From: a virus
Length of the DNA stretch: 64,000 nucleotides
Reading direction: 5' to 3' (one strand)
IMG/VR virus record: IMGVR_UViG_3300043774_000178
Span: 50,091-114,090 of that record
Part shown: positions 3,601 to 58,760 of the stretch, one piece after another
How positions within the stretch are numbered: position 1 is the stretch's first letter
Layout: each line of letters begins with the position of its first letter
Notes under the pieces: generated by a model
What the model was told of the DNA's origin: nothing
Database searches by the model: none
What the model saw: only the letters and a program-made list of their open reading frames with translations
Position numbers and translations under genes: made by a program

Positions 3601-6474
3601 GAAATAGCTACTATTGATGCTCTGTATGATAAGAAGAGTGGATTAGCATTTGATGACTTAGATAGATACAGAAAGTATGAGTATAAGCTTGCTAATAACA
3701 AAAGTCTAACTGAATCAGAAGAAATAGATTATCAGAATTTATTAAAAGCAAAGAATGAATTTGGTCTAAGTGCTGTTGAAAAAGCTAGTTTAGATGCTTT
3801 GTGGATTGAGTATAGGGGATTAGCTCAGAAACAACCTACTGAATATTACTTAGAAGCATTTGAGTATGCACTAGGTGGTTTAAATGTAGATCCGATTACT
3901 ATGGATAATGCTGATGAATGGATCAATGGTCCAGAAGTAATAAAAGCATTAGCTGAAAATCCTAAGTTTAAAAACTGGTTTCTTAGAAATCATATTGTTA
4001 AAGAAGTATTTGATGCCTCTGTTTCTGAAATGGTGCCTAAATATTTTAGAACATCTGTTTGGAGTGTATCAAGACCTTCCTCAGAAAGTAGTTACAAGAA
4101 AACAACTTTGGTACATCCTGTAACTGGAGAACCTTTAGTTATTCCTGGAGTACCTGCTGGTAAATACTCATATCAAAAAATAAAAGATCAGTATCTAACA
4201 ATTCCTAAAGGTTCAGATAAAAAACAATATGTAGGAAAAATCATAGATAACATGGGTAACTTTCTACCTAGAGAGTATAACCCTAATGATCCTGATTCTG
4301 CATATGATAAAGCTTTTATTAACGAAGAGTATGAAGCTCTAGATAAAAATAGCTCTCAGTTTAAACTTCTTGAAGAACTTAAAAAGATATTCTTAGAAAT
4401 TCAAGAGGAGACAACTAATTCAACTAAACTGTATTTAGATCTTCCTAGGATGAGGATGGTATCTAATTTAGAGTATGTTCAATCTGGTCAAGGAAGGGAA
4501 GACTTTAAAACTAAGTTAGAGGGAGTTACATCTGTCATAAAGGCAATGGCAGGTAAAGATAGAGCTGCTGATGCTGCAGAAGATGGATTTAATGCTGATG
4601 TTGAAAGACAGTATTTAATAACTACTGATATGCAAGGTAAACCTCTCAGCAGAATTCCTGTAAGAGGTTTGTATAAACTCAAAACAAGTGAAGCTTCTCA
4701 AGATGTATTAAAAGTACTTTATGATTATTTATACTCTATAAATGAGAGCTCAGCATTAAGAGAATCAGAACCATTGGTAAATGCAGTTAGTGATGTATTA
4801 AATGATCCAGCTAATGCTATCAAGAAAATGGATGGTATTAGTAAGCAAATTAGAAAAGCTACTGGTAAACTTCAGTTTATTCCTAAAGGTAAGGGTAATC
4901 TTAGAGCTCAATCTATTGATTATCTTATAGATAAAGTATACTACGGTCAAGGAAATGATACTCTTACAGAAGAGAATCCATTACTTGCTAAGTTTAGTAA
5001 CTTCTTAATGAGAGCTGCAAGTAGATCTTTCATTGCATTAGATGTACCATCTGCACTTAAAAACAGATTTGGTATGATCTTCCAAAGTCTTATTGAAACT
5101 GCTGGTGGAAAGTTTGTTACACCTATGACTCTAGCTAAAGGTAGAGCAAAGTCTTTTACTACAATAGTTGAGTTAAGTTCTAAAGGTATCTATGATAGAG
5201 GACCAAAAAGTCTTGACTTACAGATTATGGAATACTTTGATCCTATAACCGGTAAGACTAAGAAAGACTTTGGTAAATCTTCTTCTAGAACTTTTATGAA
5301 AGATATGATGGACTTCAGTTTTCTATATGACTTTAGAAGACTAGCTGAAGTTGAAGCATCGTTACAAGTATTCTGGGGGATGATGTACCATAAAAAGGTA
5401 ACTCAAGTACAAGCAGATGGTACAGAAAAACAATTAGACTACGCTGATGCATTTGAACTTGATCCAGAGACTAAGCAAATAAAACTTAAAGAAGGTATTG
5501 ATCCTGAGTTTGCTCCATATGAAGTAAACCATACATTCACAGAAGGAGATACTATGAGTAGTATAGCTAAGAAGTATGGGATTACAGAAGATGACTTAGC
5601 AGCTAGAATAAGAAGAGATGATCTTTCTGATGTAGAACCAGGAACAACTTTAGAAATAGGTAAGAGTACCAAGTTTTTAGATTTCCAACAACAGGTTACT
5701 AATATAGGTAAGATGTTGAATGGTCAGGTAAACTCACTTGATAGTTCACAAGCAGATAAGTTTCTTCTCTATAGACTCTTCACCTTCTATAAGAAGTTTG
5801 CTACAGGTATGTTCCTAAATAGATTCCAAGCAGACCTAGCTAAAGATAATAGATGGGGTCATGTATATAACTGGGATTTAGGTACTACCTCAAAAGGTTA
5901 TTATATATCTGCATACCAAGGTATATATAAAACTCTAAGAGATTGGGGAGCTTACTATCCTATGATGACAGATGAAGAAAAGATAGCTATTAGAAAAGTT
6001 GTTACTGAAATTGCTGGAGTAATTGTACTAGGACTAGCTATAGGAATGTTATTTGGATATGATAAAGGAGATGAAGAAAGGTTTGAGAAAATGAGACTCC
6101 GTAATGAGAAGTATGGAGAACTAGGTGGTAAAATCACTAATCATATTCTCTATCAGTTAATGATGGTTAAGCAGGAGAATGAGGCCTTTGTACCAATACT
6201 AGGTACATCAGAGATGGTTAAGTATGGAGATAAGACATCAATTGTATTTGGACCTACCATCAATCTCTATGTTAAAATACTAGCTGACTTATGGAATACT
6301 GCTACAGGAAATCCTAAAGCACTTTATAGAAATGATGCTGGACCATATCCTTGGCAAGAAGAAGGTAGATATAAACTATGGAACCACTTGTTCTCATTGT
6401 ATGGTATTAAAGGTAAAACTTATGATCCTATACATGCTATCAAATCAGCTGAGACATTCCAAAATCTGAAGTAA
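613..6474 (+). CDS. Giant (1953 aa) crAss-like virion/cargo protein with N-terminal zincin-like metallopeptidase motif and a LysM-like domain
   Basis: ILHEYAHPF (HExxH) at about aa 195-203; HTFTEGDTMSSIAKKYGITEDDL...VEPGTTLEI LysM-like segment at ~5520-5660; size and position typical of Crassvirales cargo proteins. Confidence 0.7.
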   Translation: MPCRIQIEEKIRTQAEDAIRPYRGRDYIKLRVEASNVNKRYGYPVVQVSQWEADIYDVNVNVPEPLIEEYYQNELRKEEEEARQSQIEDAERAGEIYNDRYLFDNKQLVLKTMAEQGVDDYDEVMRSLKEDRIMQVAKLLGERFQKAFGIPHEVITAAQARELLRGTNIPYTGEAAFYYGNVIYVVEGNMKPSAILHEYAHPFIQALEKDNPQLFERLFYNLATYDVGQQIIQEIESKYPELEGDTQRFKQEVLVTALERAALDNLAEIEKNDPDFDNFISQLLYAIKKIIRKLVDKVNLKELSPNTTMEELADMFLDPQFVIEVPKFSEDSFVYFKKNLSDFTTQLQDIKYDSLIDTINRVHQEAKYEIAAIKAAPFRLTKELSGKDGIKLLRGVEGSLKNFQTYEKDPSKADPQVVADAMLDHTEEFNKRALALINSMNEMEVFAENIEKVLDEMKENKEHFTSVGISKIMYFKDFIARQSEFIDEIKEISGLKKTNEFYKKLNSIDNTLQGASKQIKRLQREFVTDFFGKSTNLMTTNLEEGIKERITKVFKADGLSDEMINEFYKTVINTPNGKTITIKDANYPLNPKRAQRLINEVNEYFAKRLGKEQIDDFIEGRRDDLGFFSAWITPYANIDDPLVGSFANFIKRELKKAENKSLRQANDIAQRTFQLLKDVGYNPNSTGQLAKMVLFTDKVGTLNDKGEYEEFEVRSFMDKFKNWRYERGKLQHEFDEARESKDKDAIKKAYDALLEFDEKYMHRRYKKEYYDLQKIWKEGARVIDPFTKEEIVVSKEDAFQAWLERQTALDKLSVVKNVHFTELEDVEGFSMADAANAEYQRLFDVYNPDNTPKTGEELRKTLLRRFYRSESRKFYEYPISMDRVQQDLDNFIIKLAGEGITLENNEEKFNEKLEKFISVNFRTAYTDEYYSEKRRILSDIRAINNRAKANQDILDKREDLSKQLFELVNLVLDKNGQPNGIEFTPEQIKRVKTLEEEIATIDALYDKKSGLAFDDLDRYRKYEYKLANNKSLTESEEIDYQNLLKAKNEFGLSAVEKASLDALWIEYRGLAQKQPTEYYLEAFEYALGGLNVDPITMDNADEWINGPEVIKALAENPKFKNWFLRNHIVKEVFDASVSEMVPKYFRTSVWSVSRPSSESSYKKTTLVHPVTGEPLVIPGVPAGKYSYQKIKDQYLTIPKGSDKKQYVGKIIDNMGNFLPREYNPNDPDSAYDKAFINEEYEALDKNSSQFKLLEELKKIFLEIQEETTNSTKLYLDLPRMRMVSNLEYVQSGQGREDFKTKLEGVTSVIKAMAGKDRAADAAEDGFNADVERQYLITTDMQGKPLSRIPVRGLYKLKTSEASQDVLKVLYDYLYSINESSALRESEPLVNAVSDVLNDPANAIKKMDGISKQIRKATGKLQFIPKGKGNLRAQSIDYLIDKVYYGQGNDTLTEENPLLAKFSNFLMRAASRSFIALDVPSALKNRFGMIFQSLIETAGGKFVTPMTLAKGRAKSFTTIVELSSKGIYDRGPKSLDLQIMEYFDPITGKTKKDFGKSSSRTFMKDMMDFSFLYDFRRLAEVEASLQVFWGMMYHKKVTQVQADGTEKQLDYADAFELDPETKQIKLKEGIDPEFAPYEVNHTFTEGDTMSSIAKKYGITEDDLAARIRRDDLSDVEPGTTLEIGKSTKFLDFQQQVTNIGKMLNGQVNSLDSSQADKFLLYRLFTFYKKFATGMFLNRFQADLAKDNRWGHVYNWDLGTTSKGYYISAYQGIYKTLRDWGAYYPMMTDEEKIAIRKVVTEIAGVIVLGLAIGMLFGYDKGDEERFEKMRLRNEKYGELGGKITNHILYQLMMVKQENEAFVPILGTSEMVKYGDKTSIVFGPTINLYVKILADLWNTATGNPKALYRNDAGPYPWQEEGRYKLWNHLFSLYGIKGKTYDPIHAIKSAETFQNLK

Positions 6475-36523: not shown

Positions 36524-36790
36524 TTAGTAATCAAGTTTCTGTATTTCTTTTTGGATAAATTCTAGTCTTGCCTCTAGATTTCCATATTCATTAAATGCTA
36601 GTAATTCTGCATCACTAAGTTGTGCTTTATATTCTTCAACTGGTTTATTCATATAGTTACCTAAATGAATATATTCTTCTTGACTAATAAGATTTGATTC
36701 TAACAATCCTCTTAACCAGCCCATTATACCGCCTCTAAACTTATCTTTGTTTTGCACCATAAGTTTTAATAGTTCTTTGTCTGCTCTCAT
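36524..36790 (-). CDS. Hypothetical protein
   Basis: 88-aa ORF. Confidence 0.6.
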   Translation of the reverse strand: MRADKELLKLMVQNKDKFRGGIMGWLRGLLESNLISQEEYIHLGNYMNKPVEEYKAQLSDAELLAFNEYGNLEARLEFIQKEIQKLDY

Positions 36791-36824
36791 AATATTATTA
36801 ATTAAGTTTCTATAAGTTATGTTA

Positions 36825-37555
36825 AGTAAAACTACAAGTCAAACTCTGCTTTACAGTATGAGAGTTTATGCCTGAAACCTTGTAGTCTACTCAACAACCA
36901 GAAGTGTTAGCCCGTTGCTGTCCCTAGGGAGTGCTGGCATGTGGTTACTGGTTAAATACCCCTCTGCACTCAGTTGTAATAGTATTGGTTGTAGCTCAAT
37001 TTAAAAGTAAACATCATTCAAGATAGCGTACTGTGAACACTTCTATATATCTATAGAGCTATCACTATCTTATAGTTTAAATTAAATCATAACTAAGAGT
37101 TCTTATACTACTCTTAAATCAACTATTACAACTGCTCACCCTTGGGAAGTGAGAATGGTGCATTAGTACCTTGCATACTCTTACAAGGATTAGTTATTTC
37201 TGTCTTCCAGTGGTACTTCTACCTGCAATTTTAACTACTCCAATTGCATAAATTACTTTAAGTATAAAGCTTTCGCATTTCACTTATGCCTTTCTTACAA
37301 AGATGATTAGTCTTCTCAACCTTTACAGAGGTTTAGTTAGGAGTTACATACAGCTAACAAGTAATCATCTTGTTTCTTATAATCTTACTGTAATAAGATT
37401 AAATCACTGACATAAATAGTACTCTCACAAGGTTGCAACCCTTGAGGATGTAGTCATTCCATTAAGAGCCCACAGTAATAGACTGACGAGATCTACTAGT
37501 AGCATTTCCTTACCTGCTTGGATGAGAGTATAAGCAGTTTTATATCATGCTTAGG
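36825..37555 (-). ncRNA. Candidate large structured non-coding RNA (or cluster of RNAs)
   Basis: ~730 nt with no ORF of 60 aa or more, containing many long complementary pairings (see findings); strand inferred from context. Confidence 0.55.
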
Positions 37556-37563
37556 ATATGTCT

Positions 37564-37809
37564 TTAGATATTATCAATACATATTAATGAATCTAAGTCA
37601 GCGTATTTACCTGTGTATACTTTGCCCGACTGTGATTCTACTTTGATACTATCTTCAGAGACTTCAAGGAAATACTCTGTCTTAATATGCTTAGAAGTTT
37701 TGGGAGAATGATGCTCTACAGCATTATTGTGTCCTAATATACATCCTACAAAGAATGTAATAATAGCATAAATAGTGAATGCGAATGCAAGTTTACCATT
37801 GTTAATCAT
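37564..37809 (-). CDS. Membrane-anchored hypothetical protein
   Basis: MINNGKLAFAFTIYAIITFFVGCILG TM helix; upstream Tyr-rich extension judged spurious. Confidence 0.6.
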   Translation of the reverse strand: MINNGKLAFAFTIYAIITFFVGCILGHNNAVEHHSPKTSKHIKTEYFLEVSEDSIKVESQSGKVYTGKYADLDSLICIDNI

Positions 37810-37929
37810 ATAATTGAGATTTGAGTTACTGAAATTAATTCCCCGGAGAATATGTGGCTCTAATAGATAATAATAATAGTATAGATAGAGATAGAGATAG
37901 TAAGTAAGTATGTATAAAGATACTTGTAT

Positions 37930-38121
37930 ATACTGACCAATAGCCATATTCTTAAATTGTATGTGGAGTATGAGTAGGGATTATTCATACTGACCAAGGT
38001 TGTTGTAGATATGTGGTGGTTGATTATCAACTAGTTAGCTCTTAATGAATCTTAATTAATCCATAGTAACTTCAATAACATACTAGTTTATCACTAGTAT
38101 ATACTGACCATGTATTGACCA
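37930..38121. repeat. ATACTGACCA direct repeats
   Basis: Copies at 37930, 37987, 38101 and variant GTATTGACCA at 38112. Confidence 0.7.
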
Positions 38122-38239
38122 TACCTTTACAACCCCACTCTGTTTTGAGCTGTTTAACTTAAGCCGCAGACGAAGTCTGCTTAATAGCAAAAACAATAAC
38201 CCTACACTGTATATCAGTATAGGGTCATTGTGGATTGGG

Positions 38240-50023: not shown

Positions 50024-50260
50024 ATGGCAACTTATAAATTTCCAGAGTTTAATGTAGAGATAGTAAACCCTACAGTAACTATAAATATGAATACCATAGG
50101 AGATATGGCTATTGATCAACTGTTATCTGTAGATATAGTACTTTCTGTACCAGGAGCAACATTTGGTGTAAGAATGGAAAATATGCCATACGTTGATACA
50201 TGGGAAGATTCTGATGTACCTGGTATGGTAGATATTGCATTACAAGCATATGAAGTATAA
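50024..50260 (+). CDS. Hypothetical protein
   Basis: 78-aa ORF coupled to the DUF1566 gene. Confidence 0.6.
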   Translation: MATYKFPEFNVEIVNPTVTINMNTIGDMAIDQLLSVDIVLSVPGATFGVRMENMPYVDTWEDSDVPGMVDIALQAYEV

Positions 50261-56556: not shown

Positions 56557-58760
56557 TGGAATTCTGGAATAACATACCTACTTGGGATAATGGTACATGG
56601 ACTACTACAGACTTTGCTAGTAGACAAGACTTTACTACATATCTACTTACAATATTTAAAGAACCTGGACAGTATAACTTTAATCAGGTAAGTGCAGATG
56701 TCTTTAATGAGCAGTCAAGACTCTTTAGACAAAACAAAGTATACTGTACTGCACCATTTAAGTCTAAAGACTTTATAGCTTACTGGGATGATCAAAAATC
56801 TAAATGCAGACAAGGTATAATAGTTAAGGACAAACGTAATGAGTGGTATGTAACTAGAGACTACTATATGTGGTTAAACTTCTTACCAATCTTTGATAAA
56901 GAGCAACAGAAGTTTGACTTTGCTAAAATTAGAGATGCGCAGTATCATATGGCTCTATATGAGCTACTAGCAGAGATGCATTATAAGCACTCAGCTATTC
57001 TTAAGAAACGTCAGATAGCATCATCATACTTTCATGCTGCTAAGTTTATAAACCAGTTATGGTTTGAGGCTGGGGTTACACTTAAGATGGGGGCTTCTCT
57101 TAAAGACTATATCAATGAGAAAGGTACATGGAAGTTCCTAGATGAGTATGCAGCATTCTTAAATGAACATACTGCTTGGTATAGACCAATGACTCCACAC
57201 AAGGTAATGATGTGGCAGCAAAAGATTGAAGTTAGAAAAGGAGATAGAAAAGCTGAGGTAGGTCTCAAAGGTACAATACAAGGTATGTCATTTGAGAAAG
57301 ATCCAACTAATGGTGTTGGTGGACCGGTAAAGTTCTTCTTTCATGAAGAAGCGGGTATTGCACCCAAGATGGATCAAACATATGAGTACATCAGACCAGC
57401 AATGAGATCTGGTATGATTACTACAGGTATGTTTATAGCTGCAGGATCTGTTGGTGATTTAGATCAATGTGAGCCATTGAAAGAAATGGTACTTAATCCA
57501 GAAGCTAATGATATCTATGCAGTAGATACAAATCTTATTGATAAGAATCATACAATAGGAAGATCAGGACTATTTATACCTGAACAGTGGTCAATGCCAC
57601 CACATATAGATGAGTATGGTAACTCACTTGTAAAAGAAGCATTAGAAGCACTGGATGAGCAGTTTATAACTTGGAAGAAAGAACTCTCACCAGAGCAATA
57701 TCAGCTAAGGATATCACAGCACCCTAGAAATATAGAAGAAGCATTTGCTTATAGAAAAGCATCTGTATTCCCACAGAATCTAGTAGCTGCACAATTAAGA
57801 AGAGTAGAAGAGAAAGAATACTCCTATGAGTTCTTAGATATATACAGAGATGAGAATGGATTACCTAAAGTAAAAGAAACTAGTAAACTTCCTATACTTG
57901 ATTTTCCTGTATCTAAAAAGACTGAAGATAAAACAGGTACACTTGTAGTATGGGAAAGACCTATCAAAGATCCGGTGTTTAACAAACACTACTATGCATC
58001 TATTGACCCTGTATCAGAAGGAAAGACAACTACCTCAGAATCATTATGTTCCATATATGTAATGAAAGCAGCGGTTGAAGTACAGAAGCATTCTGCAGGT
58101 GAAGTACAGAACTACATAGAACAAGATAAAATAGTAGCAGCTTGGTGTGGTAGATTTGATGATATCAAGAAGACACATGAGAGACTAGAGCTAATAATAG
58201 AATGGTATAATGCATGGACAGTAATAGAGAATAACATATCTCTATTTATACAGTACATGATATCTAGAAAGAAACAGAAGTATCTTGTACCAAGAACTCA
58301 GATTCTATTCTTAAAAGATCTAGGAGCAAATGCTAACGTATTTCAGGAGTATGGATGGAGAAACACAGGTAATCTATTTAAGTCACATCTAATATCTTAT
58401 GCTATTGAATACATAAGAGAAGAGTTAGATACTATAACAAAAGATGATGGTACTGTAGTAAAGACTCACTATGGTATTGAGAGAATACCTGATCAAATGT
58501 TACTTAAAGAAATGCAAGCATATCAGGAAGGACTTAATGTTGACCGTTTAGTATCCTTTGCTGCACTAGTATCATTTATGAAAATACAGCAATCTAATAG
58601 AGGTTTTGCTAAAGATATAATAATGGATGATGCCTCTAAAAACTTGCAAAAGTCAGAAAATTTGTATAAATTATCTCATAACCCTTTTCGGCATATGGGA
58701 AAGGGTAGAAATGTAATGGGGCAAAGTTTTAAAAGATCCGCATTCAAAAACTTTAAATAG
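56556..58760 (+). CDS. terL: Terminase large subunit
   Basis: LKKRQIASSY Walker A variant, FFHEEAG Walker B, nuclease SIDPV, IENN, NVDRL. Confidence 0.9.
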   Translation: MEFWNNIPTWDNGTWTTTDFASRQDFTTYLLTIFKEPGQYNFNQVSADVFNEQSRLFRQNKVYCTAPFKSKDFIAYWDDQKSKCRQGIIVKDKRNEWYVTRDYYMWLNFLPIFDKEQQKFDFAKIRDAQYHMALYELLAEMHYKHSAILKKRQIASSYFHAAKFINQLWFEAGVTLKMGASLKDYINEKGTWKFLDEYAAFLNEHTAWYRPMTPHKVMMWQQKIEVRKGDRKAEVGLKGTIQGMSFEKDPTNGVGGPVKFFFHEEAGIAPKMDQTYEYIRPAMRSGMITTGMFIAAGSVGDLDQCEPLKEMVLNPEANDIYAVDTNLIDKNHTIGRSGLFIPEQWSMPPHIDEYGNSLVKEALEALDEQFITWKKELSPEQYQLRISQHPRNIEEAFAYRKASVFPQNLVAAQLRRVEEKEYSYEFLDIYRDENGLPKVKETSKLPILDFPVSKKTEDKTGTLVVWERPIKDPVFNKHYYASIDPVSEGKTTTSESLCSIYVMKAAVEVQKHSAGEVQNYIEQDKIVAAWCGRFDDIKKTHERLELIIEWYNAWTVIENNISLFIQYMISRKKQKYLVPRTQILFLKDLGANANVFQEYGWRNTGNLFKSHLISYAIEYIREELDTITKDDGTVVKTHYGIERIPDQMLLKEMQAYQEGLNVDRLVSFAALVSFMKIQQSNRGFAKDIIMDDASKNLQKSENLYKLSHNPFRHMGKGRNVMGQSFKRSAFKNFK

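Follow-up and report, generated by a model that had tools for sequence, protein, structure and literature searches.

Self-cleaving ribozymes of the twister class, in the type P1 form used for comparison here (Rfam RF03160; Roth et al. 2014, as summarized in PMC5408937 and PMC8501958), are built from a fixed series of segments: P1, UAA, P2, GC, P3, P4, GUCCCAAGC, P4', GUAAA, P2', GAGGG, and P1' (Table 1 in PMC8501958). The highly conserved bases lie in loops L1 and L4, L4 contributes a CCC that pairs with a GGG in L1, and cleavage takes place at the U-A step of L1, beside P1 (PMC5408937); a P3 stem is found in 78% and a P5 stem in 1% of known twisters (PMC6154101). Twisters are common, yet what they do for bacteria and phages has still to be worked out. 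Self-cleaving ribozyme classes are known to cluster in phage-related DNA, a property that led to the discovery of hatchet, pistol, and twister-sister (Weinberg et al. 2015, as cited in PMC10085705). Here, we describe a noncoding gap (positions 36791 to 37563) in a 64,000-nucleotide stretch (the window, to which all coordinates refer) of the IMG/VR virus record IMGVR_UViG_3300043774_000178 (positions 50,091 to 114,090 of that record), which belongs to a freshwater crAss-like phage. On the basis of sequence comparison, we consider it likely that the gap is a minus-strand noncoding leader composed of independent structured-RNA modules and that one of these, module B, is a self-cleaving twister variant.

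The gap is delimited by the stop of a minus-strand open reading frame (ORF) at 37564 and the start of another at 36790; it holds no minus-strand ORF of at least 30 amino acids (aa) and four plus-strand ORFs of 30 to 42 aa. The original prediction, which had presented positions 36825 to 37555 as a gene-free, densely base-paired candidate for a large phage noncoding RNA (ncRNA), was right to regard the stretch as noncoding, and all of the helices that it named are present where it had placed them. Dense base pairing was not a property of the region as a whole, however: compared with dinucleotide shuffles, its minimum free energy (MFE) gave z values of -0.52 (plus strand) and -1.33 (minus strand). 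The only piece that folded better than expected by chance was a junction at 36954 to 37171 (minus strand; z = -3.83; 0 of 200 shuffles), with z values of -0.3 to -1.4 for the minus-strand folds of the remaining pieces. With the small protein P0003, encoded just downstream of the gap, as an anchor, we fetched 80 related viral loci (designated by L numbers). A BLAST comparison of the gap with these loci returned short blocks of 87 to 100% nucleotide identity, although the anchor protein itself was only 45 to 75% identical, and the blocks define three minus-strand units, namely, A (36886 to 36831), B (37171 to 36954), and C (37530 to 37419). The conserved parts of the gap are therefore three separate units of about 60 to 220 nucleotides (nt), joined by nonconserved spacer. 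The features of module B are as follows:

36954 to 37171, minus strand: module B, a twister-like ribozyme candidate (covariation, fold, covariance model R1, and match to the twister segments)
37171 to 37166 with 36959 to 36954, minus strand: flanking helix (fold and register test)
U37165 / A37164 A37163, minus strand: predicted cleavage site (by likeness to twister)
37162 to 37158 with 36969 to 36965, minus strand: helix UGCAC/GUGCA (covariation)
37157 to 37154, minus strand: CAUU, strand of the second internal loop
37153 to 37149, 37148 to 37140, and 37139 to 37135, minus strand: hairpin with CUCAC, loop UUCCCAAGG, and GUGAG, respectively
37134 to 37122 with 36983 to 36971, minus strand: base of the long variable stem, followed by A36970
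36964 to 36960, minus strand: GAGGG

The MFE structure of 36954 to 37171 recovers all four helices, that is, the junction named in the original prediction together with an outer helix, and the copy of B in the window scores 99 bits against covariance model R1. In an alignment of 24 distinct copies, UGCAC/GUGCA forms the closing helix, the loop UUCCCAAGG of a 5-bp hairpin is invariant, and the long stem has an insert that ranges from about 10 to 285 nt. In these copies, 97.5% of cells are paired, compared with 88% when partners were shuffled and 31 to 49% when they were slid, and changes on both sides were observed at 14 of the 24 tested pairs, all five hairpin pairs among them. When 122 copies were considered, the column pairs with the highest mutual information were exactly the proposed Watson-Crick pairs. 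On the gene-sense strand, G.U pairs outnumber A.C pairs (43 versus 18), and every B copy in the 80 loci oriented by P0003 lies on that strand. The exact 5' pattern of B occurs in more than 120 IMG/VR stretches; among the matches listed, 77 of 80 loci carry an R1 match of 55 to 109 bits, while two of the others are copies cut at the end of the locus and one is a chance match. Overlap with coding sequence is rare, since 2 of 112 copies fall inside a same-strand ORF of at least 40 aa and 8 of 112 fall inside a reverse-strand ORF of at least 60 aa. B lies anywhere between 14 and more than 1,300 nt from the next ORF, and no downstream gene family was tied to B beyond that of P0003, which had itself served as bait for the first loci. 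A fixed-distance promoter upstream of B was rejected, with no conserved position beyond -5.

A search of bacterial genomes (596 Gb) with the B pattern returned mostly chance matches, with 5 true copies in 80 among the matches listed. These copies are located in contigs filed as bacterial, L233 (Sediminibacterium sp.), L228 (a Chitinophagaceae metagenome-assembled genome), L214, L227, and L264, which are either prophages or binned phage contigs; the copies in the Sediminibacterium and Chitinophagaceae contigs hint at Chitinophagaceae as possible hosts.

Written out as segments, module B reads helix, UAA, UGCAC, CAUU, no P3, CUCAC, UUCCCAAGG, GUGAG, long stem plus A, GUGCA, GAGGG, and helix'. 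The order of elements is that of twister, and the first internal loop, with U/AA opposite GAGGG, is identical; in both RNAs, a covarying helix lies beside this loop, a variable flanking helix occupies the equal register, the termini fall within the outer helix, and the context is phage related. The two also share the central seven bases of the hairpin loop, UCCCAAG, in which CCC is complementary to GGG; the end bases of loops UUCCCAAGG and GUCCCAAGC differ (U and G in B, G and C in twister). In total, fifteen bases of B match twister at equivalent structural places. All five stem pairs of the P4-like hairpin covary, and in the P2 equivalent, UGCAC/GUGCA, two of the five pairs show compensatory changes from C:G to U:A (in 30 and 15 of 122 copies). 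Although the pattern used for retrieval did not include GAGGG, 148 of 154 real copies have it intact; the U at -1 of the predicted cleavage dinucleotide is present in 119 of 126 copies, and the AA following the predicted cleavage site is present in all of them. The two sides of the candidate T1 pseudoknot, CCC in L4 and GGG in L1, are complementary in every copy, and the one C-to-U change found there keeps a G.U pair.

On the basis of the twister analogy, an outer helix was predicted before it had been seen, and it was then found, in the predicted register only. From position -2 onward, pairing with the bases that follow GAGGG involves 3.48 of 6 positions, compared with 2.81 +/- 0.095 for mismatched partners (z = 7.1), and the other P1 registers were at or below the control level, save one that reads this helix shifted inward by one pair (z = 5.4). 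Examples of this flanking helix are GGGTTGC/T...GAGGG/GCAACC and TTTCAC/T...GAGGG/GTGAAT (where slashes represent segment borders).

Several observations weigh against assigning B to the twister class. The invariance of the AA and of the loop is partly built in, because both were in the search pattern, and the CCC:GGG pseudoknot is beyond the reach of covariation because its two sides never vary. The second internal loop of B is CAUU (or CAUAA or CACAA), where twister has the GC that forms its second pseudoknot, and a long stem with a single A takes the place of the A-rich GUAAA or AUAAA. With this loop altered and L4 ending in GG, the two-pair T2 pseudoknot cannot form, leaving at most one C:G pair; we infer that a U.G closing pair, with one bulged G pairing with the invariant C of CAUU, would make a consistent model. 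A stem at the P5 position is always present, with a base (CAGUUGUAAU/AUUACAACUG) that is conserved in sequence, and P3 is never present. Rfam searches at E values up to 10 gave no match in the window region or in a 60-nt minimal B (L107:2870-2975), and RF03160 gave no match anywhere in the phage genome. Finally, decayed or divergent B-like copies (L016:4209-4328, L228:2476-2593, L129:8445-8571, and L105:3024-3145) keep the long-stem base CAGUUGUAAU/AUUACAACUG but lose the twister-like loop, GAGGG, or the 5' half, and the stem may therefore have a role of its own. In view of these departures and of the lack of an Rfam score, we did not file B as a canonical twister. It does look like an undescribed variant of the twister ribozyme, one that probably works in the same way as twister.

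The rival explanation that survives best holds that B is a noncleaving, structured cis regulator, such as a pseudoknotted three-way junction that binds a ligand or a protein, and that its twister likeness is convergent. About 28 invariant unpaired bases around the junction and a possible loop-to-tail pseudoknot do give B an aptamer-like appearance, a quarter of its copies end 30 to 60 nt before an ORF start, and the unusual second internal loop and blank Rfam models just mentioned fit such a regulator as well. We nevertheless consider this rather unlikely, given the fifteen twister-matching bases and the predicted flanking helix in its exact register, and given that B has no link to a downstream gene family, lies at such variable distances from the next ORF, and shares its arrays with hatchet ribozymes (see below).

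Returning to B as a self-cleaving twister variant, the transcript that would carry it can be outlined from a promoter-like motif at the upstream end of the conserved region:

37531 to 37540, minus strand: promoter-like motif AAACTGCTTA, directly 5' of module C and abutting its first base

The corresponding consensus, AAACWGCTYA, occurs nine times in the window (1.16 expected), with eight minus-strand copies between 37531 and 40277 and the ninth at 57656 to 57665. Most of the eight head small ORFs, and in other phages the motif is found ahead of B or C; no copy belongs to the ORF at 36790. We infer from this distribution that AAACWGCTYA acts as a promoter. Together with an upstream UAAGCA, the copy at 37540 to 37531 can also make a hairpin, a pairing that is present upstream of modules in other phages too; the helix TAAGCA/TGCTTA of the original prediction overlaps the motif. 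The transcript would start near 37530 and run through C, the spacer, B, and A into the ORF at 36790. Within it, U/AA opposite GAGGG, the short flanking helix, the 5-bp helix, and the UUCCCAAGG hairpin (through CCC:GGG) would build a twister active site, and B is predicted to cut itself between U37165 and A37164. The upstream piece (C plus spacer) would then end in a 2',3'-cyclic phosphate, and the downstream piece (ribozyme, A, leader, and ORFs) would begin with a 5'-OH and a compact fold. In bacteria, 5'-OH and cyclic-phosphate ends are generally expected to change the susceptibility of an RNA to 5'-end-dependent RNases. Ribozymes at mRNA 5' ends have been reported to permit downstream translation in other systems (PMC8501958; PMC13725137). 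The likely purpose of such a cut would be to separate parts of an early transcript and to alter the stability or translation of the downstream message. No RtcB ligase was found in the phage genome.

How the modules are arranged in relatives bears on whether the gap could be one large RNA. In the window, the order is C, spacer, B, A, but elsewhere we found B, C (L036); C, B (L006 and L023); A, C (L017); A, B, B (L027); C, A, C, B (L016); and three copies of B (L038). L003, in which P0003 is 99% identical, lacks exactly window positions 36958 to 37412, or 455 nt comprising the middle and B. The 455-nt difference, located at L003:4552-4556, ends at like short strings (UAUUUA after C and UAUUUA after B), and such ends look as if whole modules had been gained or lost by recombination at short strings. 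The central 245 nt between C and B are common only to L125 (96% identity) and are absent from L003, and no module has a second copy within the 114-kb phage. The intervening and downstream features are as follows:

37172 to 37418, minus strand: lineage-specific spacer with local hairpins (AGAUGAUUA/UAAUCAUCU and others); fold z = -0.92
36887 to 36953, minus strand: spacer with hairpin AACCAG/CUGGUU, found only in the near-identical L003; fold z = -0.66
36827 to 36791, minus strand: A/U-rich leader, holding an element, AACUUAUAGAAACUU, that is present also after B modules in other phages
36790 to 36524, minus strand: first downstream ORF, P0001 (88 aa, no family)

Comparative support for the helices of the original prediction was divided along the same lines. 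Compensatory changes among homologs, which had been proposed as a check, were found for modules A and B, and support extends to ACTACAAG/CTTGTAGT and AAACTCT/AGAGTTT (module A); to the TGCAC/GTGCA junction, CTCAC/GTGAG, and the 13-bp helix (module B); and to TACTCTCA/TGAGAGTA (module C). It is lacking for AACCAG/CTGGTT, AGATGATTA/TAATCATCT, and AATCTTA/TAAGATT, because the sequences of these three occur in at most two near-identical relatives (L003 or L125).

A single structured ncRNA of about 700 nt, acting as one unit in the manner of GOLLD or ROOL, would agree with the single promoter-like motif at the 5' end of the region, with the hairpin and UUUU near its 3' end, with the lack of a minus-strand ORF in between, and with L125, in which C, the middle, and B follow each other in the same order. 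However, the whole-gap fold is no better than that of shuffles, none of the folds has a long-range helix between modules, A is followed by no conserved U-run, and the middle 245 nt have no homolog beyond one near-identical phage; moreover, the parts occur separately, reordered, and in multiple copies elsewhere. The varying order, the 455 nt lacking from L003, the lineage-specific middle, and the single copies together rule out a single conserved 700-nt RNA, and we regard a single functional unit as very unlikely. What the locus shares with GOLLD and ROOL is that it is noncoding, phage borne, and predicted to be structured from its sequence, but those RNAs are single units of several hundred nt that are conserved whole, whereas independent units of 60 to 220 nt without an Rfam match are found here. 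The original prediction of a large ncRNA thus stands as far as conserved, structured, noncoding RNA without an Rfam family is concerned (a search of the gap returned nothing at gathering thresholds and nothing at E values up to 10) but not as a GOLLD/ROOL-type RNA. Likewise, its statement that the stretch cannot be assigned to a family is borne out by the Rfam result but is too broad, since module B can be placed next to a known class, twister.

It is also conceivable that the modules act as DNA, as sites for protein binding or recombination or as small mobile elements with inverted ends, that shuffle early-gene cassettes. In favor of this, the end blocks of C are inverted repeats around variable content, the C hairpin holds the palindrome GGTTGCAACC, module gain or loss relative to L003 is precise, and order and copy number vary. 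DNA sites would not account for the compensatory changes that keep pairing in B and A, for the excess of G.U over A.C pairs on one strand, for the uniformly gene-sense orientation of B in the P0003-oriented loci, or for unpaired conserved bases in B that match an RNA catalytic core, and we hold this explanation to be extremely improbable. Even less credible is a run of micro-ORFs separated by ordinary terminators, for, despite surroundings made of very small genes and a hairpin with a T-run that often precedes B in other phages, the gap has no minus-strand ORF of at least 30 aa, conservation tracks base pairs rather than codons, and in many copies the covarying hairpin interrupts the frame that opens at the AUG of UAAUG (e.g., AUG CAC CAU UCC UGA).

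Module C, at the 5' end of the proposed leader, consists of the following features:

37419 to 37530, minus strand: module C, with near-invariant end blocks and a variable middle
37530 to 37523 with 37427 to 37420, minus strand: closing helix of UACUCUCA with UGAGAGUA, 8 bp
37522 to 37513, minus strand: invariant junction UCCAAGCAGG
37444 to 37428, minus strand: hairpin CAAGG-GUUGCAA-CCUUG (5 bp with a 7-nt loop), abutting the closing helix

IMG/VR contigs that hold the 25-nt 3' block of C number at least 119. The 87 distinct copies have nearly constant end blocks, UACUCUCAUCCAAGCAGG on the 5' side (occasionally interrupted by an inserted UU) and CAAGGRUUGCAACCUUGUGAGAGUAC on the 3' side, and the length of the middle ranges from 24 to 203 nt. 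Since the helices of C never vary, they are beyond covariation testing; three rare G.U pairs do fit the minus strand only. In some copies, a longer 3' strand, complementary to eleven bases of the 5' block, follows two extra hairpins. A fixed-register closing helix for the variable middle was rejected, given a weak signal (z up to 3.5). Between C and B, a C-like conserved module was observed at L119:1004-1082, as well as in L013 (approximately 4534 to 4612) and L016 (approximately 3780 to 3860); its hairpin, AAAGG-AUCGCAA-CCUUU, and its ending, ACAGAGUAC, are both akin to those of C.

Neither the window nor a minimal C gave a tRNA match or an Rfam match for this module (Rfam at E values up to 10). 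The 8-bp helix of C, continuous with a 5-bp hairpin with a 7-nt loop, has the acceptor/T-arm layout of tRNA-like signals (RNase P substrates, tRNA punctuation), but there is no T-loop consensus, no conserved anticodon arm (the middle being variable), and no CCA; with ARAGORN and the Rfam tRNA model blank at C in the window and 21 loci, we rejected a tRNA. A retron, considered on account of the inverted ends and variable middle, was also rejected, as the genome encodes no reverse transcriptase. Strings of C resemble those of twister-sister (RF02681; PMC5660989), with UCUCAU similar to GCUC/AU, CCAAG similar to GCAAG, and the loop GUUGCAA similar to GUGCAAGU. In C, however, the first two strings share one strand and are not separated by a helix, there is no opposite internal loop, and there is no Rfam match; we treat the likeness to twister-sister as a lead only. 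A by-eye comparison of C and A with published features of the hatchet, pistol, hammerhead, and hepatitis delta virus-like consensus structures gave no convincing match.

Module A, the last unit before the downstream ORF, is summarized below:

36828 to 36886, minus strand: module A, a bulged hairpin followed by UUUU (compensatory changes, strand-specific U.G pairs); outer stem ACUACAAG/CUUGUAGU, inner stem AAACUCU/AGAGUUU, conserved internal loop GUUUCAGGCAU, and apical loop CAUACUGUAAAGC, all minus strand

About 25 distinct copies of A were collected. Pairing was observed in 100% of cells, compared with 35 to 59% for slid partners; each of the two stems has compensatory changes, and only the minus strand accommodates the U.G pairs. 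Usually, 2 to 8 nt separate A from a following C or B module. What comes after its stem varies by copy (UUUU, UAUUAA, UAUAUA, or ACUAAUG), and in the absence of a conserved U-run, A is not simply a terminator; a terminator scan did not call it. There is a likeness between its apical loop (CUCAUCCUGUAAAGCAG) and the junction of C (CUCAUCCAAGCAGG). Both A and C are most likely additional processing signals, and they may serve in stabilization.

The source of the window is a 114-kb record with an estimated completeness of 96%, and its portal protein is 23 to 33% identical to the portals of crAss-like phages of Bacteroides, Flavobacterium, and Cellulophaga. At about 33 to 40 kb of the window, the genes are all small and all on the minus strand. 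Proteins P0001 to P0004 and four other neighbors gave no informative Pfam or PHROG family, no DNA match was found in GenBank phages to the gap, to the 15 kb around it, or to the minimal B, and a literature search for the motif strings yielded nothing relevant. The catalogue of IMG/VR structured-RNA candidates in PMC10690425 may include parts of these motifs. On the upstream side, the ORF listed as 127 aa (37564 to 37947) opens with a Tyr/Leu low-complexity run, and its homologs in other loci are 81 aa long; these fit an ATG start at 37809 to 37807, which would create a second gene-free stretch of about 335 nt (37810 to 38145) upstream. Some related contigs carry phage-borne tmRNA genes (L067:8190-8524 and L101:8424-8820, at 100 and 63 bits, respectively) a few kilobases from module arrays. 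Others carry tRNA matches of 95 to 145 nt (L070:6748-6892, L070:6983-7081, L120:11695-11805, L013:9460-9569, and L013:9700-9794), and these lengths, far above that of a normal tRNA, suggest insertions or introns in phage tRNA genes.

An Rfam scan of 40 related loci identified canonical hatchet ribozymes (RF02678) in four of them (L101, L093, L085, and L119), with scores of 78 to 82 bits against a cutoff of 51; no hatchet was found in the window. The hatchets are encoded on the same strand as B, about 1 kb upstream of a B copy; L119 carries, in sequence, a hatchet, two small ORFs, A, C, the C-like module, B, and an ORF. With hatchets in four related arrays, the leader looks ribozyme rich, and such a leader probably cuts early transcripts. 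We speculate, tentatively, that C, A, and the C-like module of L119 (1004 to 1082) are themselves RNA-cutting signals, either new self-cleaving classes or recruiters of host RNases, that punctuate early transcripts as interchangeable strings together with the twister-like and hatchet ribozymes.

The twister-like variant B keeps both of the loops that form the active site, the first internal loop and the hairpin loop, while altering the second loop, losing the usual second pseudoknot, and always having a stem that is rare in twisters. This mix of kept and changed parts amounts to a natural experiment on which elements of the fold catalysis requires. Since current homology models miss B, Rfam-based surveys would undercount such ribozymes in viral metagenomes. 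The setting is a defined one, beside hatchets in the leaders that precede early-gene cassettes in a group of phages that is abundant and uncultured, and it provides a place to ask what use self-cleavage is to a phage. As in the ribozyme-rich neighborhoods described previously (PMC10085705), no more than about 1 kb separates a hatchet from a twister-like module, and both occupy the same strand of intergenic DNA near phage genes. The genes in those neighborhoods are of Mu-like prophages, whereas the arrays reported here are early-gene leaders of freshwater crAss-like phages and also hold A and C, which match no known class; without known relatives, these two modules are good candidates for the type of screen that yielded twister-sister, pistol, and hatchet.

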